Virus record (IMG/VR): IMGVR_UViG_3300045988_172593
Coordinates: 1 to 37,438 of that record
DNA: 37,438 nt
Reading direction: 5' to 3' (one strand)
Origin: a virus
This document shows positions 1 to 37,438 of this stretch, in pieces. Within the stretch, counting starts at the first letter, position 1. Each line of letters starts with the position of its first letter. The translations under genes and the position numbers were made by a program. Under the pieces are notes generated by a model. That model did no database searches and was not told the origin of the DNA. It saw only the letters and a list, made by a program, of their open reading frames with translations.

Positions 1-104
1 ACGTAGCTCAAGTTACAATCCCGATAACAGAGTCCACATCAGATGGTACGGCGGGCGATCCTTATTACATTCCTTTTGATTTGGCCGTTATTTGCGTTAA
101 GTAG
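1..104 (+). CDS. 3' fragment of receptor-binding cassette E (duplicate of 37320..37423), truncated at the window edge.
   Basis: The in-frame translation NVAQVTIPITESTSDGTAGDPYYIPFDLAVICVK* is identical to the C-terminus of the ORF ending at 37423. The TAG stop lies at 102..104. Confidence 0.6.
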   Translation, partial: VAQVTIPITESTSDGTAGDPYYIPFDLAVICVK

Positions 105-117
105 CATTCCGTATCCC
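105..117 (+). repeat. Shufflon crossover site (CATTCCGTATCCC), forward orientation.
   Basis: A 12-13 bp core is repeated at 8 loci in both orientations. Every copy reads SVS in the cassette frame. Confidence 0.8.
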
Positions 118-437
118 AGGATACCGGCTGGGTGAACCTGTACAGCGACAGCACGTGGGGAGGCGTGCTATACAGGGCGAAGGCTGGCATCTGCACAATC
201 CAGGTTCAAGTGTACGGCATCAAGGCGAACGACAACTGGAAGGTTCCGATGACGATTCCGGCGCAGTACCTGCCCGACACGTCGCTCTACGCTCCGCTTG
301 CCCACAGGCAAAGCAACAACGTCGCCCAGCTGTGGGTCCCGAACAAGGACCACGAAGACCCCTTCTTGTACATCTATACGCAGGTGGACGCGAACTGGGA
401 GAACTACATCACCGGCATCGTGTCGTATTTCTATTAG
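105..437 (+). CDS. Promoterless C-terminal cassette A of the receptor-binding protein (silent, plus orientation).
   Basis: The frame is open from the site (HSVSQDTGWVNLYSDSTWGG...) to the stop at 437. It shares the SNNVAQ...DPF(L/Y)Y motif with cassette E. No start codon or RBS context. Confidence 0.7.
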   Translation, partial: HSVSQDTGWVNLYSDSTWGGVLYRAKAGICTIQVQVYGIKANDNWKVPMTIPAQYLPDTSLYAPLAHRQSNNVAQLWVPNKDHEDPFLYIYTQVDANWENYITGIVSYFY

Positions 438-745
438 GCCTTGAGATAGACGATTGACCATATCTCGTCGTTCGAGACCACGTCGCTGACCTGCACGATC
501 ATGACGCCGTTCCCGCCAAGCGCGCCGGTTATCGACGGACTTTTCCAAACGGAGTTGCGCCCGTAGGTCACGCCGGTCTCGTGCAGCGGCAACGGGCAGC
601 CGGTCAGCGTCGCGGTTATCCAATTGCACTGACCTGCGTTGATGCGTCCGGCCATATAGACCATGCCCGCGACCTCGACGCAGGTGTCCACGGAGATGCG
701 CTCGTCGGAAGAGCTCACGCTGTAGCTCTTCCGGGATACGGAATC
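434..745 (-). CDS. Promoterless C-terminal cassette B (silent, same orientation as the expressed gene).
   Basis: Minus-strand frame ...LLGDSVSRKSYSVSSSDERISVDT...IVYLKA*. It begins at the reverse-orientation site at 733..745. Confidence 0.65.
   Translation of the reverse strand, partial: DSVSRKSYSVSSSDERISVDTCVEVAGMVYMAGRINAGQCNWITATLTGCPLPLHETGVTYGRNSVWKSPSITGALGGNGVMIVQVSDVVSNDEIWSIVYLKA
733..745 (-). repeat. Shufflon crossover site, reverse orientation (GGGATACGGAATC on plus).
   Basis: It forms a perfect head-to-head inverted repeat with the site at 756..768, separated by a 10 bp spacer. Confidence 0.8.
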
Positions 746-755
746 ACCTAACAGG

Positions 756-768
756 CATTCCGTATCCC
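756..768 (+). repeat. Shufflon crossover site (CATTCCGTATCCC), forward orientation.
   Basis: Exact core copy. It reads HSVSR in the cassette C frame. Confidence 0.8.
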
Positions 769-1025
769 GCGAGTGGCCAATAGGACGCGTCGTATGGCTC
801 GCCGGCTCGGTCACGCCGAAAACCCTCGGGTTGCCCGGCACGTGGAAAAGCTACCGCTGGTCTCTCACGACCAAGGTCGGCTCGGTTCTCGACGTCAAGG
901 GTGGCAGGTACGACGTCGCCGGCGCAGAAGTGCAGATTTACTCGTACAACAATTCCGAAGCGCAAAGATGGCACATCTACGCGGAGGGTCCAGGCGTCGT
1001 CACGCTGTGGGTCAGAACGGCATAG
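756..1025 (+). CDS. Promoterless C-terminal cassette C, carrying a ricin-B-like (QxW) beta-trefoil-type motif.
   Basis: Open frame HSVSREWPIGRVVWLAGSVTPKTLGLPGTWKSYRWSLTTKVGSVLDVKGGRYDVAGAEVQIYSYNNSEAQRWHIYAEG...RTA*. The LDVxG...VQiy..nn..QrW pattern is lectin-like. Confidence 0.65.
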   Translation, partial: HSVSREWPIGRVVWLAGSVTPKTLGLPGTWKSYRWSLTTKVGSVLDVKGGRYDVAGAEVQIYSYNNSEAQRWHIYAEGPGVVTLWVRTA

Positions 1026-1038
1026 CATTCCGTATCCC
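1026..1038 (+). repeat. Shufflon crossover site (CATTCCGTATCCC), forward orientation.
   Basis: Exact core copy immediately after the cassette C TAG stop. Confidence 0.8.
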
Positions 1039-1289
1039 CGATTCAGATTCGCGGATGGAAGGTGCTGGAATCCGTCCAGACGAGCGGGTATCCGGGCGAG
1101 GCCAACCGAAAGATTTATATGAGATACGAGGGAACAGACTCTAGCTGGACGTTCATCCCTATCAGACTGGCGTGGTGCACGGTCGAGGAGATCACCTTCG
1201 ACAGCGGCGGCATAAAGCTGCTCGTCAATCCAACGTACGAGTCGTCGCATATTGGGGTGACTTTGCTAGCGCTCAAGCTCAGTAGATGA
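1026..1289 (+). CDS. Promoterless C-terminal cassette D.
   Basis: Open frame HSVSPIQIRGWKVLESVQTSGYPGEANRKIYMRYEGTDSSWTFIPIRLAWCTVEEITFDSGGIKLLVNPTYESSHIGVTLLALKLSR*. Confidence 0.65.
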   Translation, partial: HSVSPIQIRGWKVLESVQTSGYPGEANRKIYMRYEGTDSSWTFIPIRLAWCTVEEITFDSGGIKLLVNPTYESSHIGVTLLALKLSR

Positions 1290-1328
1290 TTCCCTTGAGC
1301 GCTAATAGGGATACGGCGCTACGGAGTG

Positions 1329-2162
1329 CTACGAGCGCGTCACCGGGAAGACCAACTGTCCGTAATAGTAGGCGTAGCTACTCCCTCCGTGGCTTACGTA
1401 GACGCTAATTTTCCCGGAGTTCTTGACCATGAGCTGCCCGCATATGGAGCTATCGCCCCTGTATCTGAGCGGCGCGATGTATGCGACTTCGTCGCTGCCC
1501 GTTTGGTCGGCGGCCGTGCTCCCTAGCGGTTTCATGCCGTTCGGGAGGGTTCCGATTTTACGATCAGAGTTTGCGACTGGCACGCTCAGGAAGTCGACGG
1601 AGACGATGCAGACGCCGCCCTCGACGCAGCACATGAGGCTGTTGCCGAGGCGGACCTGCTTTCGGGATACGGAAGCTTTAAGCTGGGATACGGAATCCCC
1701 GAGCGTGGCCAAAGGGGTGACGGGATTGAAAAGCTTGACGGGCGTGCCGACGGTGATGCCGTTGAGCGGCACGCGCCACAGCTTCAGGTCGTTGGTCGTT
1801 ACGGCGGGGTCCGCCGCCGTGCCGGTGGTCGGCGTGCCCTTGATGACCATCGGCTCGATGCTCTCGATGCCCTCGTTCGTCTTTGAGTAGCGCGCGACAA
1901 CCAGGTCGTTGCGCTTCTGGCCCTGCGTGCCAGATTGGATGGTGAGCGATGTGGCCGCCTGGTTCCAGAAGCGCTTGCCCCCCACCATGCCGACGCCGGT
2001 TCCGAGGGTGGCGCTGTTGGCGCTGGCCATCGTCAGCGCGAAGTCGTTGCCGTACTTGAGCACGCAGTCCGCCTTGCCGACGGTCGCCGTGTTGAGCGCG
2101 GCAAGGTCGTCGGAGCTGATGTGCTTGGTGCCGGTCATGCCGTCCACTATCTCGAATGCCAT
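1329..2162 (-). CDS. Receptor-binding / tail fibre protein with a shufflon-switchable C-terminus. The constant N-terminal part is about 1698..2162. The currently fused variable part is 1329..1684.
   Basis: A 277 aa ORF at the distal end of the tail module. Two reverse-orientation sites lie inside the CDS and encode ...LGDSVSQLKASVSRKQ... Confidence 0.8.
   Translation of the reverse strand: MAFEIVDGMTGTKHISSDDLAALNTATVGKADCVLKYGNDFALTMASANSATLGTGVGMVGGKRFWNQAATSLTIQSGTQGQKRNDLVVARYSKTNEGIESIEPMVIKGTPTTGTAADPAVTTNDLKLWRVPLNGITVGTPVKLFNPVTPLATLGDSVSQLKASVSRKQVRLGNSLMCCVEGGVCIVSVDFLSVPVANSDRKIGTLPNGMKPLGSTAADQTGSDEVAYIAPLRYRGDSSICGQLMVKNSGKISVYVSHGGSSYAYYYGQLVFPVTRS
1665..1676 (-). repeat. Shufflon crossover site, reverse orientation, one mismatch (GGGATACGGAAG).
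   Basis: A second in-frame site 9 nt from the site at 1685..1697. It encodes ASVS. Confidence 0.6.
1685..1697 (-). repeat. Shufflon crossover site, reverse orientation (GGGATACGGAATC). This is the junction between the constant region and the variable cassette.
   Basis: It encodes GDSVSQ within the expressed ORF. Confidence 0.8.
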
Positions 2163-2405: not shown

Positions 2406-3089
2406 TTACTTCGTCCTCAGCCACGTGTACGGGCCTACGCTCGGCACCTGCTTCCACGTGCCGCCGACGCTGTTCGGGTTGAACGAGCCGTCGGTCTCCA
2501 CATACTCGCCGACCCGGTGCGCCATGAGCCACGTCGCGTTCGGGTCGGCGGTGTCGAGGATGTGCTGCCAGCCGCCCCATGCTGAAGCGGACGTGCCGCG
2601 GCGCCAGTACATGTCCGCCCCGACCACCGCCACCTGCTTCGGCAGCCCTCCGGAATCATCGTTCCATGGGGTCAGGGTCACGAGCACGGCGAACGTGTCT
2701 CCGGACAGCCCGATCGCGCTCGCGGTCTTGAACTCCGCGTATATGGACTTGGCGTGGCCGCTCATGTACCACGCCGGCGAGCTGTTCGCGTTTCTCGTGT
2801 CGGCTATGCTGCCGCCGCTCGGACCCTGCGGGCCGGTCGGGCCCTGCGGGCCGGTGGCCCCCTTGGGGCCCTGGATTCCCTGCGGGCCCTGAGCACCCGC
2901 CGGGCCGACGGGACCGGTGGGGCCCTGCTTGCCCGTGGGACCCTGCGGCCCCGTCGCGCCCGTCTCGCCCTTCGGCCCCTGCGGGCCGGTGGCGCCGGTC
3001 GCGCCCCTCGCGCCGGTCGCGCCCTGCGGGCCCGTCGCGCCCTTGTCGCCCTTAGGGCCCTTGATGTTGCCGACCAGGAACTTCGCCAT
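2406..3089 (-). CDS. Collagen-like repeat tail fibre protein.
   Basis: [26 protein letters not shown]... long GXY repeats followed by a globular C-terminal domain. Start ATG at 3089. Confidence 0.7.
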
Positions 3090-3091
3090 CG

Positions 3092-5227
3092 TCACCCACC
3101 TATCTCGTAGTAAAGCTCGCCTGTGGACGGGTCGTATGAGAGCGGCGGCGCGGCGCCGCCGTCGGCGACGTGCGACCAGAGGTTCCCGTCCGCGTCCACG
3201 GTGAGCGAGAAGAAGCCCGACAGGGGCGCGGTCACGCCCGAATCGCCGCGGTCGCCCTTCTCGCCCTTGGGGCCTTGGATGCCCTGCGGGCCGCGCTCGC
3301 CCTGCTCGCCCTTGACGCCCTGCGGCCCCGTCGCCCCGGTCGCGCCCTTCGCGCCAGTGGCTCCGGTCGCGCCGGCCGGGCCTTGCGGCCCTTGCGGGCC
3401 TGTCGCCCCCGTCGCTCCCTTCGGGCCTTGCGGGCCGGCGGCGCCGGCCGCGCCCGTCGCGCCGGCCGGGCCTTGCGCTCCGACCGGGCCTTGCTCGCCC
3501 CTCACGCCCGTGGCGCCGCTCATGTCCGCGATGAGCGAGTAGCCGCTCGCTCCCTTCACGTAAAGCTCTGCGTTGTGCGGGTCCTCCACGTCCGAGCCGA
3601 TGACTGCGAAGCCGCCGGCCTTCACGCCGTCGCTCTTCCACCCCGCCTGCATCGCCTCGTAGCTGGAGTAAACCTTCGAGATGGAGAAGCCCTCGCCCGT
3701 GTCGCCCTTGGGGCCTTGGATGCCCTGCAATCCCTGCGGGCCGCGCGGCCCCGTCTCGCCCTGGACGCCCTGTGGCCCCTGCTTTCCCTGGATGCCCTGG
3801 GGGCCCTGCTCGCCGGCGTCGCCCTTGGGTCCTTGCGCGCCCGTCGCGCCCTTCGGGCCTTGCGGGCCGATCTCGCCCTGCGGGCCGGCGTCGCCTTGCG
3901 GGCCTCGCAATCCCTGCGGGCCGCGCTCGCCCGTGGCGCCGGTCTCCCCCTTGGGGCCTTGGATGCCCGTCGCGCCCCGCGGGATGCCCAACGAGAGCGT
4001 CTTCTTCAGGCCTTCGCCGGAAAGCGACGCGGTGGCCTTCGCGCCCTCCGCGAGCGTGGAGACCTCGCCCATCGCGATGCCGGCCTGCGCCCATGTCTGG
4101 AGCGAGTTCGAAGCGTCGGTCGCGGCCTTTTCGGCCTTGGCCTCCACCGCCGCCAAAGCCTCGGAATCGACTTCCGCGCTGAAGGTGTAGTTGGCGAGCT
4201 TCAGGCCCTTGCCGGCCAGGTACGCGTGCCCGCCGCCGCCTTCGGCGGTCCCGCTGCTCGTCGTCTTGGTCGTGGTCTCGGAGCCGACCTCGTATGAGTA
4301 CGTGGCCACGCCGCGGCTGACCTTGACGACCTTCTTGGCCACCGTCGCCGCGACGGTGCGCCCGTGCGCGTTGTCGCGCGCCGAGATCACGTCGCCGACG
4401 TCCACGTCTATGTCGTCGTGGGCGTCCACCTCGACGCTTCCGGTGGTCTGGTACTCCGCGAGCTTCTTGCGGCCGTCCTCCTCCAGCTTGGCCTCGTCGG
4501 CGTTGCTGTAGTCGTACAGCGCCGCTATCTCGTCGACCCCGAACAGCGTCTGCTTGTGGGAGACGTTGCCCTTGGCGTCGGCGTAGAAGTGGACGACCGC
4601 GCGGTTCTCCAGCTCGCCCGTGCCGGCGCAGACCAGGTGGTTCACGCAGCGGTGAACCGAGGTCAGCGTGAAGTCCAGCAGGTCGGAGTCCACCTTGTTC
4701 GCATAGTCCGCCACGGGCGGCAGCGAAAGCTCGACCTTGCTCCCCTTGCGCCGCATCGCCAGCTTGCGGCCGTTGGCCTTGGCAAGCGCCTTGAGGCCGC
4801 TGTAGCCGTCGGTGAAGCGGTCGAAGGCGTAGCTCACCGATGCATCATCGGAAGCGGCCGAGAAGACGGCCGACAGCCCCATGCGGGAGATGAGCGAGGC
4901 GACGACGGCGCCAGCTTTGCCGCTCACGGACAGATAGCCGCTGCCGGAGTTCGGCAGCAGGCGCTTGCCCGCCAGGATGCCGTGCCAGGTTCGTCCCTTG
5001 CACGTGACGGCGCCCGCCGCATCGCGGCCTGCGTCGTAGCTCGACTCGTCGACGACGCCGCCGTACTCGCCGCCGTCGATGAACGCGAACTGCCCCTCCG
5101 CCGGGGCGGCATCGGCGGCGCACGTCAGCTCGAATGAGTTCTCGTCGCTGCCGAACGCCAGGTCCAGCTCGAAGTCCTGCAGCTCCCGGACGTTGCCGAG
5201 CTTGGAGTCGTAGACGACTAGGACCAT
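3092..5227 (-). CDS. Tail-associated protein (Tal-like) with two collagen-like (GXY)n segments.
   Basis: About 711 aa. The N-terminus is typical of siphovirus Tal proteins and lies downstream of Dit. Two long GPQGPKG... repeat blocks. Confidence 0.7.
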
Positions 5228-6048
5228 GGCGGCTCCCCCTCCTCCTCGTACCATGTGAGGTCGAACCCGAACGAGCGGTCCCACTCGACCTCGTGCACGC
5301 CCGGCGAAGCGGGCTGGAAGATGTACTCGCCGCTTCCCGATCCGTTTCCGCGGCGCGCCTTGGCGAACGCGTCGGTGGTCGAGCCGTCAGGCCCGACGAC
5401 GGTCACCGAGCGCGGCGTTGCCAGAGGGTCGACCACCATGTATCCGCCGTCGGGGACGGTCACGTCGACGCGGAACCAGTTCCCGTCGATGCGGATTGCC
5501 GGGTTGACGCACGGCCCGTAGACGATGAACCGAAGCGGAGCCGCGCCCCACCCCGCTATGTCGACGTATTTCCTTGTAGACGGAACGCCGAGGTCGTACG
5601 GCAGGTCGTACGGCAGGTCCAGGAACTCGCCGTCTCCCGAGGTCGCGGTAAGCTGCTCGAACGGGACCGTGTGGCCCTTGCGCCACACGCCGTCGAGCAG
5701 CACCACGGTAAGGTCGGCGGTGAAGAAGCCCTCTGAGACCGTATCGGCCTCCGACTCCATCACCATGCACCGCTGCGACCATCCGTCGACGCTCAACGTG
5801 CCGGCGACGCCTCTTGACACGTCGCGGTCGCACGCCCGGCGGAAAGCATCGGCCTTCGCGACGTCGGCGAAGAACGCCTTGAGCTTCGCCTTGCGCGCCT
5901 TCCTCGTCACGGAAGAGACCGACGCGTAGCCGATCGAGTACGACCATTCGCGGCTGAACAGGTCGCTCGGCCTGCCTACGTAGATGCCGTCGTTAAGGCG
6001 GTACGCATCGCCGCCGACGCCGGAGACGTACACGATGTCGCTACGCAT
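5218..6048 (-). CDS. Distal tail protein (Dit).
   Basis: 276 aa, located between the tape measure protein and Tal. Confidence 0.65.
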
Positions 6049-8302
6049 ACGCCACCGCCTTCCTGACCTTTCGGCCGAAGTCCTTGTCTCCCATCACCGG
6101 CGTGTAATCGGCGATGATTGCCGGCAGGTTCGCCGCCAGCCACGCGATGACCGATTCGCCGGACGCGCCGACGGAGACGGAGCCGCCGATGCCTGCCCCG
6201 CCATCGCCGATCGCGGAGCGCACGCGGCCCATGACGCCTTCCATCGCCTCGGTCGGGGTGTCGCCGGCCGCCTCGATGCCCTCTGCCAGGCCCTGCACGA
6301 TGGCCTTGCCGCTGTACGGCGTCCATCCTTTGCCGCTGAACGGGCCTCGCTTCGCAGGGGAGTGCGGCAGGTAGCTCGCGATGGTATCGACGACGGAGCC
6401 GATGGCCGCGCCTGCAGAGCCTATCATCCCCATGATGCCGTCGATGACGCCTTGGACGATGGCCTGGCCGGCGCTCATGGCCGAGCCTACGATGCCGTAG
6501 AGGCCGTCGATAAGGCTTGAGCCGAAGCTCGACGCGGCCTGCGCCGCCTGGGAGGCCATCTGGCCGGCCCATCCCGCGACGGCACCGATGACGGAAGACA
6601 GGAACCCGGACACGTTGCCGGGAAGCTGCGAGAGGAAGCCGACCACGGACGAGATGAAGCCCGAGCCGGCCGAAGCGGCGCTCGAAACCATCGAGCCTAC
6701 CCATCCGGCTACGGTCCCGATGACCGATGCCAGGAAGCCGCCCACGATGCCGGGCAGCTGCGAGAAGAAGCCGGCGACCGACGTCACGAACGCCTGGATG
6801 CTCGCCGGCGCCGCCATGAAGAACTCGACCACGGCTGTGACCGTCTCTATGAGGCCCGTGAAGACCGCCACGACGGCCGACACCGCGTCCACCAGCGTCA
6901 CCAGGACGGCCACGAGCACCTCGCCCAGGAACGACGCTATAGGCTCAAGCCATACCTGGGCCTCGCCGACCGCCGCGAACAGCTCGCCGAACCGCTCTCC
7001 GAGGAACTCCAATGCCGGCAACAGGTATTCGCTGGCCGTGTCGGCGATGCTGCCAAGAAGCGCGCCGACCGTGTCGAGCACGGCCGCCTGCGCCTCCATG
7101 GCCCCCATCTCGTCGAACTTCGATTCCAGCTGGCCTATGCCTTCCGCCGCCCGGGCACCGAAATCCGCTATGGCCCCGAGGAACCCCGACAGCGACTCCG
7201 CCAGGCCGCTCGCCTGGAACGACTGCGCTATCTCGTCGACCTTCTGCTGCGCCTCGGCCGGCAGCGCGTCGTAGATTCCCCTCAGCGCCTCCGCGAAGAT
7301 GTCGCCGACCGCCTGCGCCGCCACCGGCCCAAGCTGCGAGACCAACCCGGGAACCTGGCCTATCAGCGTGCCGATGATGACCGCCATGCGCGGCACCACG
7401 TTGCCCGCCGCCGTCTCGAAGCTCTGCACCAGGTTCTCGGTCAGCTGCTGCATATCGGCGGAGTCGTCGCCCAGGCCGGTCAGCCAGTTCTCCCACGCCG
7501 CCTTCATCGAGTTCACGCTGCCCTCGATGGTGGTGGAGGCCTCGCGCGCCGTCGTTCCGGCGATATTCATCTGCTCCTGGATGATGTGGATTGCCTCGGT
7601 GACGTCGGCGAACGAGTCGATGGACAGGTCGGCCATCTCGCCGTTGGCCTCCTTGACGCGGTTGGCGTCGGAGATGAGGCGCTCCATCTCCTCCTTGGTG
7701 CCGCCGTAGCCGAGCTTGAGGTTATCCAGCATCGTGTAGTTCTGCTTCGCGAAGCCCTGGTACGCCCATTGCAGCGACTGCATGTCCGTGCCGAAGGTGT
7801 TCGCGTTGTCGCTCATGTCGACCATCGCCATGTTGGCGTAGTCGGCTGCGGCGTTCGTGTCGTTGCCCAGCGACTTGATGAGCGCGGCGGAGAAGCCGGT
7901 GACCTGCTCCATGTACTGGTTCGCGCTCATGCCGGCCGTCTGCCAGGCGTTGCCGGCGTTGGACAGCGCCGTCGTCTGCGCCTGTTCGAGCTGCTGCCAC
8001 TTCCCGGCGCACTCGTCGGTGGACTGCCCGGTCAGGGCGGCGTACTCTTCGAGCGACTTGCCCATGTTGCCGAACAGCTTCTGGATGCCGCCGACGTTCT
8101 GCTCGTAGCTCGCGTACATGCCGAGCGCCTGGCTGCCGAGCGCGCCGACCGCCGTGGCCGCCGCCGCGACGCCCGCCGCAGCCGTTCGGCCGATTGCCCC
8201 GAACGCGCCCTTGACCTTCGACGCCACCTTCTCGACGCCGCTCGTGGCCTTGTCGTCGATTCCGATCTTGACCATCAGGTCCAGCAGGTTAATCTCCATC
8301 AC
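6041..8302 (-). CDS. Tape measure protein.
   Basis: 753 aa, Ala/Gly-rich, with hydrophobic GxxxG-rich segments. It lies downstream of the G/GT chaperone. Confidence 0.85.
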   Translation of the reverse strand: MMEINLLDLMVKIGIDDKATSGVEKVASKVKGAFGAIGRTAAAGVAAAATAVGALGSQALGMYASYEQNVGGIQKLFGNMGKSLEEYAALTGQSTDECAGKWQQLEQAQTTALSNAGNAWQTAGMSANQYMEQVTGFSAALIKSLGNDTNAAADYANMAMVDMSDNANTFGTDMQSLQWAYQGFAKQNYTMLDNLKLGYGGTKEEMERLISDANRVKEANGEMADLSIDSFADVTEAIHIIQEQMNIAGTTAREASTTIEGSVNSMKAAWENWLTGLGDDSADMQQLTENLVQSFETAAGNVVPRMAVIIGTLIGQVPGLVSQLGPVAAQAVGDIFAEALRGIYDALPAEAQQKVDEIAQSFQASGLAESLSGFLGAIADFGARAAEGIGQLESKFDEMGAMEAQAAVLDTVGALLGSIADTASEYLLPALEFLGERFGELFAAVGEAQVWLEPIASFLGEVLVAVLVTLVDAVSAVVAVFTGLIETVTAVVEFFMAAPASIQAFVTSVAGFFSQLPGIVGGFLASVIGTVAGWVGSMVSSAASAGSGFISSVVGFLSQLPGNVSGFLSSVIGAVAGWAGQMASQAAQAASSFGSSLIDGLYGIVGSAMSAGQAIVQGVIDGIMGMIGSAGAAIGSVVDTIASYLPHSPAKRGPFSGKGWTPYSGKAIVQGLAEGIEAAGDTPTEAMEGVMGRVRSAIGDGGAGIGGSVSVGASGESVIAWLAANLPAIIADYTPVMGDKDFGRKVRKAVAYA

Positions 8303-33016: not shown

Positions 33017-34162
33017 ATGGGAGCGAAGCTGACGCTAACGGTGTCGCGCATGGAGGGCGCCAGCAACGCCAAGTGCCGCCTGTGGCGCCTGCGCCTGTTC
33101 GTCGACGGCAAGCCCGCCAAGTCCAAGCGGTTCCACGGCACCTACGGCCAGGCCAAGGCCGCCGGGGACGACTTCAAGGCCGCCTACGCCGAGACCATGC
33201 GGCTGAGCGGCTACGACCCGGGCATGACGTTCGCCGAGTACGCCGAGCGGTGGCTGCAGAGGCGCAGGGACTCCGGGAGCTTCGAGAACCAGACCATCAG
33301 GGCCAACGCCGCGAAGGTCGACGGCCTGCGCCGCGTGATAGGCGACCTCAAGCTGAGCGAGATGAAGCGAACCGACGTCATAGACGCCCTCCTCAGCATA
33401 AAAGGAGGCGCCATCGGCGGAGGCGAGCTTATGAACTCGACCGTGCGAGGCTACCACACCGTGCTGAAGCAGATCATGGACGAGGCGGTACGCGACGAGC
33501 TGATACCCAAGAGCCCGGTCGACAACGTCAAGCCTCCGAAGTCCGACGCCCGCGAGAAGCACGCGCTGCCCTTCGACCGATACACGAAGCTCATAGGCGA
33601 CCTCACGAGCATGCGCGGAGACGCCCACGTCGTCGGCATCCTCCTCATTGCGCTGAACGGCCTGCGCCGCTCCGAGGCGGTGGCCCTCGAATGGGATGAC
33701 GACCTTGGAGACGGCCTTGCGGTGTTCGATTCCATCGAGGACATGTCCGGCGAGAAGAAGAAGACCAAATCCCCCAGCGGCAAGCGCATAGTCCCCATGA
33801 CCGCGGAGACGCGGAAGCTGCTCGACGAGTGGAAGCCCATGCAGGCGCTCATGCTGAGGTCGCGCGGAATCGAGCAGACCCCGCAGACCCCGTTGATAAC
33901 GAACGTCAAGGGCAGGAGGATGGCTGCGGACACGCTGTATCGCTGGTGGCGGAAGTTCGGGCCGACGATGTTCGGCGTCGACTGCACGCTGCATGAGCTT
34001 CGGCACACGTTCCTGACCTACCTCGCCAAAGACGGAGACGCCTTCGCGCTCAAGCGCATAGCCGGATGGTCGAAGATATCCATGGCGGACACGTACGTGC
34101 ACGCCGACGACGAGGCCGACCGCGCGGCCATGCGAGCGTTCGAGGATCGAATCGGCCGATAG
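33017..34162 (+). CDS. int: Tyrosine integrase (phage Int).
   Basis: 381 aa with an arm-binding N-terminus and catalytic motifs ...HELRHTF...Y. Confidence 0.85.
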   Translation: MGAKLTLTVSRMEGASNAKCRLWRLRLFVDGKPAKSKRFHGTYGQAKAAGDDFKAAYAETMRLSGYDPGMTFAEYAERWLQRRRDSGSFENQTIRANAAKVDGLRRVIGDLKLSEMKRTDVIDALLSIKGGAIGGGELMNSTVRGYHTVLKQIMDEAVRDELIPKSPVDNVKPPKSDAREKHALPFDRYTKLIGDLTSMRGDAHVVGILLIALNGLRRSEAVALEWDDDLGDGLAVFDSIEDMSGEKKKTKSPSGKRIVPMTAETRKLLDEWKPMQALMLRSRGIEQTPQTPLITNVKGRRMAADTLYRWWRKFGPTMFGVDCTLHELRHTFLTYLAKDGDAFALKRIAGWSKISMADTYVHADDEADRAAMRAFEDRIGR

Positions 34163-36079: not shown

Positions 36080-36237
36080 ATGTCACCTCCTTTCGCTCGA
36101 AAAAGATGATGATGTAGGCGTCACGCCTCGCTTTCCCATGGGCGCGAGGGCGCGTTCGCGCCGGGAAAATCCCAGACTCCCGGGCCGCGTATCCGCTGCA
36201 AAGGGTCTGGGATTTTCTCGAAGCGAAAGAGGTCAAG

Positions 36238-37104
36238 ATGCTGTTTAGCGAAGCCGCGAAGATGTACATGGACGACAAGCAAAAGCGCCTGCGGGCAACG
36301 ACACTCGAAGGCTACGAGAGCGCGTTGAGATGCCACGTGCTGCCCGCCTGGGGAGCGCGCGAGATCGAGGGCATCACCTTCGAGGAGCTGCAGAAGTGGG
36401 TTGATGGCTTTGAGTTACCGGGAGCGGCGGAGAAGGCGTACAAGACGTTCCGGCAGGTGTACCGCTGGACAATCCGCCGCAGGCAGATACGCATCTGGGA
36501 TGCCACGCAAGGCGTGGAGCTACCCCAGAAGCCGACCGTGCGTCGTCCCACGCTAACGGCCAGCGAAGAGCGCGAGACGCTTCGCGGCATCGTGGGCCAG
36601 CCCTTCGAATCCGCCGTGCTCCTGGGCGCGGCCCTGGGGCTGCGGAGGTGCGAAGCGTGCGCCGTGCGCATCGAGGACGTGGACTGGCGCGGCGGTTGGG
36701 TGCATGTGCGGCGCGGCCTGCACGTGGTGCGCGGCGCGGAGGTCGAGACGGGCTGCAAGACGCGGCTGTCGGACAGGCGGCTCAAGCTGCCGCGCTTCGC
36801 CCTTGAGCGCCTGCGTGCCATCAGGGGCAACCGCCGGGCGGGTAGGCTGTGCGAATTGGATCCCAACGCCGTCGCCAGGCGGTTCCGCGCGTTTTGCCGC
36901 CGCCATGAGCTGCCGCACGTGCCTATGACGTGCCTGCGCCATTCGTGGGCAACTATATCGCTGGAGCACGGCGCGAGCATCGAGGACATAGCCGTGGCGC
37001 TGGGGCATACGACTGTGAACACCGCGATGGCGCATTACCTGCAGAGTTTTAGGTCAGTGGTTGCGCGCGCTAGCGACAGCTACGCAGCGGCGATGGCCGG
37101 GTGA
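36238..37104 (+). CDS. Small tyrosine recombinase, the candidate shufflon-specific invertase (Rci/FimB-like).
   Basis: 288 aa with R...H..R...Y motifs (LRHSWAT...GH...Y) and no arm-binding domain. Its stop codon overlaps the shufflon site at 37103. Confidence 0.75.
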   Translation: MLFSEAAKMYMDDKQKRLRATTLEGYESALRCHVLPAWGAREIEGITFEELQKWVDGFELPGAAEKAYKTFRQVYRWTIRRRQIRIWDATQGVELPQKPTVRRPTLTASEERETLRGIVGQPFESAVLLGAALGLRRCEACAVRIEDVDWRGGWVHVRRGLHVVRGAEVETGCKTRLSDRRLKLPRFALERLRAIRGNRRAGRLCELDPNAVARRFRAFCRRHELPHVPMTCLRHSWATISLEHGASIEDIAVALGHTTVNTAMAHYLQSFRSVVARASDSYAAAMAG

Positions 37105-37115
37105 TTCCGTATCCC
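37103..37115 (+). repeat. Shufflon crossover site (GATTCCGTATCCC), forward orientation.
   Basis: Core copy overlapping the recombinase stop codon. It reads DSVSR in the cassette E frame. Confidence 0.8.
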
Positions 37116-37423
37116 GCAATGGAAGTTGGTACATAGCCAGTGTCGGTAACGGAGCCACTATATTATTTTTCCATATGAATATAGCCGTAACGAATTTTGA
37201 AAAGCGCGAGTATACCTACAAGTACAACCTCCCCAAAAATTGTGGAACTCCGATTTCTGGCTTCGTCAATGCAATCCAATGGAGAGCGTCTAATTCGCGA
37301 GTGACTTTCCCGTCAAATAACGTAGCTCAAGTTACAATCCCGATAACAGAGTCCACATCAGATGGTACGGCGGGCGATCCTTATTACATTCCTTTTGATT
37401 TGGCCGTTATTTGCGTTAAGTAG
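37103..37423 (+). CDS. Promoterless C-terminal cassette E (AT-rich).
   Basis: Open frame DSVSRNGSWYIASVGNGATILFF...SNNVAQVTIPITESTSDGTAGDPYYIPFDLAVICVK*. It is paralogous to cassette A. Confidence 0.65.
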   Translation, partial: DSVSRNGSWYIASVGNGATILFFHMNIAVTNFEKREYTYKYNLPKNCGTPISGFVNAIQWRASNSRVTFPSNNVAQVTIPITESTSDGTAGDPYYIPFDLAVICVK

Positions 37424-37436
37424 CATTCCGTATCCC
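37424..37436 (+). repeat. Shufflon crossover site (CATTCCGTATCCC). Same copy as 105..117 if the contig is circular.
   Basis: Exact core inside the terminal repeat. Confidence 0.7.
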
Positions 37437-37438
37437 AG

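Follow-up and report, generated by a model that had tools for sequence, protein, structure and literature searches.

A Rin-type shufflon predicted to diversify the receptor-binding protein of a temperate phage of Eggerthella or related Coriobacteriia

Described inversion systems and the new locus

Inversion of alternative receptor-binding protein (RBP) segments by a tyrosine recombinase was described by Mavrich et al. 2018 (PMC6109161) as the Rin shufflon of the Bifidobacterium prophages Bb423phi1, Bl157phi1 and Bl30698phi1. In this system, a constant region, Rc, of 168 amino acids (aa) is joined to variable regions, Rv, of 95-100 aa that resemble the C-terminus of the TP901-1 RBP; the recombination site, rix, is an asymmetric 11-bp sequence, TTCCCTAACCC; the invertase is an armless tyrosine recombinase separate from the integrase; and inversion variants have been detected at the read level in bifidobacterial prophage and virion DNA (PMC6109161). 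A Rin shufflon with the repeat 5'-ttccgtat-3' was subsequently reported by Buttimer et al. 2022 (PMC8778435) in the clade 1 prophages of Eggerthella lenta, which are about 41 kb long, have a GC (guanine plus cytosine) content of 67% and are integrated at tRNA-Leu; in this case, the evidence is comparative only, and the Rv include H-type lectin domains. In the published descriptions of Rin (PMC6109161, PMC8778435), the system is called 'putative'. Here we analyze a stretch of viral DNA of 37,438 nt (IMG/VR virus record IMGVR_UViG_3300045988_172593, positions 1 to 37,438; hereafter, the window means this whole stretch), which very probably carries a Rin-type shufflon acting on the RBP of a temperate siphophage, with a host in the genus Eggerthella or related Coriobacteriia.

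The organization of this locus is that of the bifidobacterial system, with Rc, a rix within the gene, an array of Rv cassettes and an armless tyrosine recombinase arranged in the same order. Rc and Rv of the window comprise 155 and 87-115 aa, respectively, compared to 168 and 95-100 aa in Bifidobacterium, and the site of the window, TTCCGTATCCC, matches TTCCCTAACCC in 9 of 11 bases, with two core bases differing. Over 159 aa, the Rc of the window is 44-47% identical to the Rc of loci that carry TTCCCTAACCC or TTCGCTAACCC sites. Among themselves, the bifidobacterial Rv cassettes show little similarity, but they are similar to the TP901-1 head, and the same appears to hold for the window, judging from the predicted fold of the cassette that is currently expressed (cassette F, see below). 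Unlike the bifidobacterial prophages, the phage in the window appears to have a Coriobacteriia-type host rather than one of the Bifidobacteriales, carries more cassettes (six) and contains a mini-unit formed by tandem sites; furthermore, the bifidobacterial system includes a second functional rix 3' of the expressed gene, whereas the window has only a degenerate site at this position.

The E. lenta clade 1 prophages are similar to the window in the host genus, in the gene order (Rin, small Rv genes, and an Rc with an in-gene inverted copy of the repeat) and in that Rin is separate from the integrase, which is encoded at the far side of the genome; the published repeat, ttccgtat, corresponds to the first 8 nt of the window core. 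Membership in clade 1 was rejected because the published attP core is absent from the window at up to three mismatches, and because the genome size and GC content (37.3 kb and 65%) differ from those of the clade (~41 kb and 67%); the window probably represents a Rin-bearing Eggerthella-type phage that does not belong to clade 1. The locus combines a flanking tyrosine recombinase gene opposite Rc, homology of its product to Rin, the armless and non-integrase character of that product, the distribution of rix, homology of Rc, mutually dissimilar Rv of the head or lectin type, and rearrangement breakpoints at rix, the latter at the level of assemblies. All the testable defining features being present, the locus represents the known Rin shufflon, carried by another phage lineage. 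A preliminary description of this DNA, made from the sequence alone, had presented a tyrosine recombinase acting on a phage RBP shufflon as an unfamiliar combination, which it is not given the published systems (PMC6109161, PMC8778435).

The same description compared the locus to the R64 PilV shufflon and to the Mu G, P1 C and p15B Min systems; the similarity in the way of working stands, but the locus is a member of neither family. The R64/IncI shufflon (Rci, sfx, PilV tip adhesin) operates through multiple inversion by a tyrosine recombinase at short asymmetric sites, the flanks of which are not all conserved, such that the C-terminus of a surface recognition protein is swapped. Unlike in the window, the target in R64 is a conjugative pilus adhesin rather than a phage RBP, and the site sequence is different. 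Assignment to the Rci/sfx family was rejected given that the recombinase of the window shows no Rci-specific similarity, only a generic Xer-type one, and that the target is a phage tail protein. The Gin/Mu, Cin/P1 and Min/p15B systems are alike in that an invertase encoded by the phage exchanges the C-terminal portion of a tail fibre, changing the host range, and Min is a multi-segment shufflon. These systems depend on an enhancer and Fis. They were rejected as the family of origin because their invertases are serine recombinases, whereas the window encodes a tyrosine recombinase, as had been recognized in the preliminary description and is borne out by Pfam, PHROG and NCBIfam.

Sites, cassettes and the receptor-binding protein gene

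Bases 1-119 of the window are identical to bases 37320-37438 (a terminal duplicate, without strand, that ends 2 nt past a rix core), indicating that the contig is circular, with a length of 37,319 nt; its GC content is 65.3%. A motif search of the window detected the 12-mer ATTCCGTATCCC on the plus strand at positions 106, 757, 1027, 37104 and 37425 and on the minus strand at 733-744 and 1685-1696, along with a one-mismatch copy, CTTCCGTATCCC, on the minus strand at 1664-1675, in which C occupies position -1. We write the 12-bp rix core as A-TTCCGTATCCC. At least eight copies in both orientations had been counted previously; the positions and strands are confirmed, but due to the circularity of the contig, the copies at 106 and 37425 are one and the same site, so that there are seven distinct sites rather than eight. 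The circularity also places cassette E (37103-37423) directly upstream of cassette A. The 11-nt core TTCCGTATCCC is perfect in all seven distinct sites, every one of which lies within the shufflon, the sole other near-match having two mismatches; none of 100 dinucleotide-preserving shuffles gave as many as nine matches at up to two mismatches (shuffle mean, 1.9). The conserved DNA of the site is limited to these 12 asymmetric base pairs, and the flanks are not conserved.

Translation of every site yields x-Ser-Val-Ser, as had been noted before, in frame with an open reading frame (ORF) that runs for 87-115 codons to a stop, and the frame read from each site is the one used by the expressed gene. 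The cassette coordinates proposed in the preliminary description are correct. The outermost rix (37104-37115, plus strand), which adjoins the recombinase gene, heads silent cassette E (37103-37423, plus; 106 codons and a stop, in frame from the site, 43% GC), and this cassette begins on the stop codon of the recombinase gene. It is followed by the rix at 106-117 (plus; the same as 37425-37436) and silent cassette A (105-437, plus; 110 codons and a stop). Silent cassette B (434-745, minus; 103 codons and a stop) is convergent with A and is headed by the rix at 733-744 (minus). The rix at 757-768 (plus) heads silent cassette C (756-1025, plus; 89 codons and a stop), which is predicted to encode a ricin-B-like lectin (Pfam RicinB_lectin_2, E 1.3e-5), and the rix at 1027-1038 (plus) heads silent cassette D (1026-1289, plus; 87 codons and a stop), which is convergent with the expressed cassette F. 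In cassettes A and D, a stop codon lies immediately 5' of the site. A scan of positions 1-2500 for promoters and terminators, a crude one based on the sigma-70 consensus, remained at the background level and gave no sign of independent cassette promoters. By clustering, the six cassettes fall into separate families of mutually unrelated heads; a Pfam search detected no H-type lectin domain among them, the ricin-B lectin of C being found instead.

The expressed gene (1329-2162, minus strand) is the last of the tail module, which consists, in this order, of the tape measure gene (6041-8302), genes for proteins of 276 aa, 730 aa (a minor tail protein with collagen repeats), 227 aa (a collagen-like fibre) and 77 aa, and the RBP gene. 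As previously described, this gene contains a site within its coding sequence after 155 constant codons (Rc, 1697-2162, minus; ...TLGDSVSQ..., the site being read Asp-Ser-Val-Ser). The junction is a tandem direct pair of rix (1664-1696, minus; perfect at 1685-1696, with C at -1 at 1664-1675) that encloses a 21-nt mini-unit coding for SVSQLKA, and the remainder of the gene is cassette F, the C-terminal RBP head domain with the stop codon (1329-1663, minus). The matches of the protein in PHROG are confined to residues 1-170, and many of its 2360 database homologs cover Rc only, with alignments that diverge beyond the first 57-65% of the query.

In an AlphaFold model built with 44 homologs, residues ~168-276, that is, the expressed cassette F, are predicted with confidence (predicted local distance difference test, pLDDT, ~84). 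When the model was compared to the PDB using Foldseek, the top matches were all RBPs of lactococcal phages, namely p2 (2wzp, 1zru, 2bsd), the TP901-1 ORF49 head (4ios, 3ejc, 4v96) and the bIL170 head (2fsd), with head-domain alignments of ~111-129 columns and a root-mean-square deviation of 2.8-4.5 Å for most; in a viral structure library, the matches were annotated as receptor-binding and minor tail proteins. A sequence search of the Rc-Rv protein against the PDB gave chance matches only. The modelled fold, together with the gene position, supports the identification of the variable part as the head of an RBP, the target that the preliminary description had assumed.

Rearrangements, the recombinase and alternative explanations

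The product of the 77-aa gene upstream of Rc is identical in hundreds of assemblies, and this identity was used to fetch ten integrated prophages, the loci of which were cut at the sites and the cassettes clustered. In these prophages, the Rc fusion (242-286 aa) precedes a run of one to six small ORFs that lie in either orientation, and then a 288-aa Rin, and the six cassette families of the window recur in other orders and orientations. Three cassettes that are silent in the window are fused to Rc in this set: A in five loci, E in three and D in one. The first codon of the junction is always Asp when joined to Rc and His, Asn or Leu when the cassette is silent, which places the exchange point inside the core. 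Two sister prophages, L085 and L087, share 99.2-100% identity over 12.2 kb and, except for the shufflon, are colinear. The shufflon itself differs by the permutation or inversion of seven blocks, and adjacent blocks always overlap by 11-17 nt, precisely at a site.

When the search was extended to the 120 best protein homologs, each of the six cassettes was recovered in a full-length fusion with Rc, always joined at the SVS codons, with 92-98% identity for the five cassettes that are silent in the window and 90-94% for the Rc-F fusions. Rc is joined to cassette A in L082, L083, L084, L089, L091, L106 and P0028 (97%), to B in P0026 (92%), to C in P0022 (96%), to D in L086, L103-L105, L107, L108 and P0053 (98%), and to E in L085, L088, L090 and P0081 (95%). 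A search for an exact copy of the Rc-F fusion protein currently encoded in the window returned no record; this is compatible with the presence of different fusions or truncated genes in other assemblies but does not by itself constitute evidence.

Over the 12.6 kb compared, one scaffold, scaffold_80 of ENA ERZ28650966 (35,838 nt), matches the window with 100% identity. At one end, this scaffold carries Rc-rix-cassette A, and at the other end, E-rix-cassette A, the latter being the arrangement in the window; the Rc|A junction, itself 100% identical, is the product predicted for an inversion between the sites at 1685 and 106. A single 55-nt stretch thus has two different partners in this assembly, which means that the sample contained both isoforms. 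Further contigs end 0, 2 and 19 nt past the Rc site, and among 80 IMG/VR contigs, approximately 10 have an end no more than 165 nt away from it. The earlier proposal that inversion fuses the ~155 constant residues to a new C-terminus is thus backed by the six fusions found elsewhere, the breakpoints at sites in L085 and L087, and the Rc|A junction of scaffold_80.

A breadth-first search over inversions between oppositely oriented sites reached 1920 arrangements; expression of A, C, D or E takes a single inversion, and expression of B takes two, as had been anticipated. Under the mechanism we propose, the last gene of the tail module would encode Rc, followed in frame by rix and an Rv head domain, and the five further head cassettes, apparently devoid of starts and promoters, would be held between the RBP gene and the oppositely directed rin, each starting with the same site in the same frame. 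Rin would recombine the in-gene site with any site in the opposite orientation, such that the intervening DNA is inverted and the expressed head is replaced, and inversions between other pairs of sites would reorder the silent cassettes, for example, bringing B into play. Because the head domains appear to be mutually unrelated (a lactococcal RBP fold and a ricin-type lectin), several adsorption specificities would be expected to coexist in one phage population. The switch would probably alter the host range, inversion may take place in the prophage state or during lytic growth, and deletion between direct sites may in some way be limited.

The rin gene (36238-37104, plus strand; its TGA stop overlaps the first rix) encodes a 288-aa armless tyrosine recombinase, the putative invertase of the RBP locus, in which Pfam detects Phage_int_SAM_3 and Phage_integrase, that is, a SAM-like core-binding domain and a catalytic domain only. 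Rin matches an integrase family in PHROG and is Xer-like by NCBIfam and PDB, the NCBIfam matches being limited to generic XerA/C/D and integron-integrase models, all far below the cut-offs. Comparison with the phage's own 381-aa integrase (33017-34162, plus; outside the shufflon, assigned by PHROG and NCBIfam) revealed no significant similarity. The protein is 98% identical to the product of a gene of Eggerthella sp. AM16-19, 80-87% identical to those of genes in Slackia, Collinsella and Olsenella genomes with the same core, and ~39% identical over ~270 aa (E 1e-40) to the recombinase found beside TTCCCTAACCC shufflons (L055, L062 and L066, which were recognized by the rix sequence and not by organism label). 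The Arg, Lys, Arg-His, Gly-His and C-terminal Tyr positions are kept by Rin across clades. The first His of the canonical H-x-x-R box is missing in all Rin clades, the position three residues ahead of the Arg being occupied by T, Q, K, Y or R (residues ~228-236 of the window Rin compared with the homologs in L002, L051, L052, L055, L058, L062, L070 and L077).

Among 60 loci with an Rc homolog and at least 2.5 kb of downstream sequence, both Rin and an inverted copy of the Rc-junction site are present in 21, neither in 34, and only 5 are discordant (Fisher p = 5e-11, not a true probability, as the loci are related). Rin adjoins the outermost site in every shufflon examined, and the site variants (TTCCGTATCCC, ATCCGTATCCC, TTCGCTAACCC, TTCCCTAACCC, TTCGGTAGCCC and TTCCCTGACCC) change with the Rin clade. 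These patterns bear on the possibility, which we consider very improbable, that inversion is real but is catalyzed by the phage integrase, by a host recombinase acting in trans or by short-homology recombination. Such a view can draw on the fact that Rin is tied to the reaction by co-occurrence, and on the second inversion locus of bifidophages, which has no adjacent recombinase (PMC6109161). It does not accommodate easily the position of Rin next to the outermost site and its absence where the sites have decayed, or the covariation of rix with the Rin clade; moreover, the integration modules differ between sister prophages with the same Rin and rix (different flanking host genes), and the exchanges are confined to the core. 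The 12 bp of this core are below the length needed for RecA-type recombination, which likewise argues against a catalyst of that kind.

It is very improbable that the array is an evolutionary fossil in which cassettes and sites record past recombination with no present-day inversion. The many close relatives of Rc with decayed sites and without Rin indicate that the system does get fixed and lost, and a degenerate site follows cassette F. However, perfect 11-nt cores in all seven sites, an intact rin with its catalytic residues, the two alternative junctions on cassette A in a scaffold 100% identical to the window, and the multiple inversions that separate L085 and L087 at 99-100% identity all speak for ongoing inversion. 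It is extremely improbable that the repetition of the 12-mer gave rise to the alternative arrangements as artefacts of assembly: contigs do often break at sites, but a 12-bp repeat is far below the overlap and k-mer lengths evident here (terminal overlaps of 119 and 55 nt; contig names with k141), so that the repeat alone can neither join nor break contigs, and the fusions were recovered repeatedly, from independent samples and by different assemblers.

Several points weigh against a Rin-catalyzed shufflon on an RBP. The role of Rin as the catalyst of inversion is deduced from co-occurrence in phylogenetically non-independent loci. The 12-bp core is short for a tyrosine recombinase site, which comprises two arms and an overlap region, and the flanks that Rin would have to bind are not conserved. 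Heterogeneity within a sample is deduced from assembly ends, not from reads. Structure prediction succeeded for cassette F, with its lactococcal RBP head fold, but the Rc part of the model is poor (pLDDT <50), so that the RBP assignment rests on the fold of the head domain, the gene position and homology to the published Rc, and we make no claim on the fold of Rc or on its reported similarity to the RBP of phage 1358. Similarly, the Pfam search that identified C as RicinB_lectin_2 found no family for cassettes A, B, D and E, which have no fold assignment.

The host range of gut phages is usually treated as fixed per genome, whereas with a shufflon of this kind, one prophage genotype would release particles of mixed adsorption specificities, which would affect host prediction from metagenomes, inference of phage-bacterium networks, and the use and engineering of phages of Eggerthella, Collinsella and Bifidobacterium. 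The shufflon also explains the frequent assembly breaks of these phages at this locus. The cross-assembly evidence, namely recombinant junctions at 100% identity, the six fusions and the tracking of the sites by Rin, adds weight to the published 'putative' system while leaving its category unchanged; the main value of the locus is as a well-documented example of a shufflon with Rin as the putative invertase. The additions to the published Rin shufflon are incremental: a core of 12 bp rather than 8, the mobile mini-unit, fossil sites and the spread across Coriobacteriia.

Mini-units, decayed sites and further observations

The mini-unit consists of 21 nt, that is, rix and a 10-nt spacer, AG[CG]TTAAA[GA]N, between tandem direct sites, and codes for SVSQ[L/V]K[A/D/N]. 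The number of mini-units at the Rc-Rv joint, where they precede cassettes C, D, E and F, varies from 0 to 2 among assemblies; for F, the fusions of 270, 277 and 284 aa contain 0, 1 and 2 mini-units, respectively. L085 has two mini-units (7023-7054 and 7951-7982) and L087 has one (7587-7618), and the extra copy in L085 accounts for the 21-nt difference in length between the two.

The degenerate site mentioned above, TAG-CGCCGTATCCC (1307-1317, minus strand), lies 13 nt past the stop codon of cassette F, in the gap between the convergent F and D. It is conserved in L085, L086, L087, L089 and L090 and always moves with the F/D pair, the two cassettes never being separated; this is probably a fossil rix that corresponds in position to the functional second site of the bifidobacterial system. 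Decay at the Rc junction itself is seen in a set of IMG/VR loci (L001, L005, L008, L010 and L025-L040), in which Rc homologs with 83-90% identity to the Rc of the window carry a decayed site at the same codons (TTCTGTATCCA, TTTTGTATTCC or ATCAGTATTTC), with no repeated copies of the site and no Rin. Going by their sequences, these genes look like RBPs frozen in one configuration.

In a Collinsella aerofaciens locus (L099, 5001-8849; NZ_JAQLEM010000033.1), a Rin with 80% identity is accompanied by 11 rix sites with the same core, and the constant N-terminus of the target gene comprises only 41 aa (MAGIFSYAKTLWQDGVTAITAARLNHIEQGISDAADSIKTLG), ending in the ...TLGDSVS joint. In some Collinsella and Olsenella loci, Rc is just ~40% identical. 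We tentatively raise the possibility, itself rather unlikely, that Rin-rix is a portable module with two undescribed layers of variation, one being the linker length set by the mini-unit and the other the use of the same Rin and core on unrelated constant regions across Coriobacteriia, through horizontal exchange and capture of RBP scaffolds via the ...TLGDSVS joint. If so, the linker length at the Rc-Rv joint would vary independently of the head domain.

The contig end of the window (...CCCAG), 2 nt past the rix core, is the last base that cassette A (head, AGGATACC) has in common with the mini-unit, AGCTTAAAGC; in an assembly graph, the paths of the parental and the recombinant junction would accordingly separate here. 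After Rc, a Logan contig (L111) stops at this CCCAG as well. The end of the window at this point might be taken as a hint of heterogeneity in its own source sample.

At the head of cassette A, the core is extended to a palindrome, GTATCC-CA-GGATAC in the window (108-127) and CCGTATCC-CA-GGATACGG in its relatives L106 and L090; this amounts to a partial inverted copy of the site that abuts the site directly, and could merely reflect the codons for SQDTG. Between cassettes B and C (733-768), two sites are arranged back to back in inverted orientation with a 12-nt spacer, CACCTAACAGGC, which is kept in L089 and L090. L088 (7020-7034) and L090 (7034-7951) differ by a 916-nt indel that contains three cassettes and is bounded exactly by two direct rix sites, consistent with site-specific deletion or insertion between direct repeats on evolutionary time scales.

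Bases 1-2400 of the window gave no BLASTN matches among 50,697 INPHARED phage records, and scans of the window for tRNAs and Rfam families gave none either. The GC content of cassette E (37104-37423) is 43%, compared to 54-61% in the other cassettes and 65% in the genome, which points to a recent gain of this cassette from a source with lower GC content, or to unusual constraints. In the divergent region between the first gene of the lysis cassette and rin (36155-36227), there is a 23-nt inverted repeat, with arms that are 87% complementary and 27 nt apart, which could be an operator, an attenuator or a terminator. The two tail proteins encoded directly upstream of the RBP gene (730 and 227 aa; 2406-5284, minus strand) contain long collagen-like Gly-X-Y repeats, and the sequence of the 227-aa protein is found in identical form in 42 blocks of the assembly collection.

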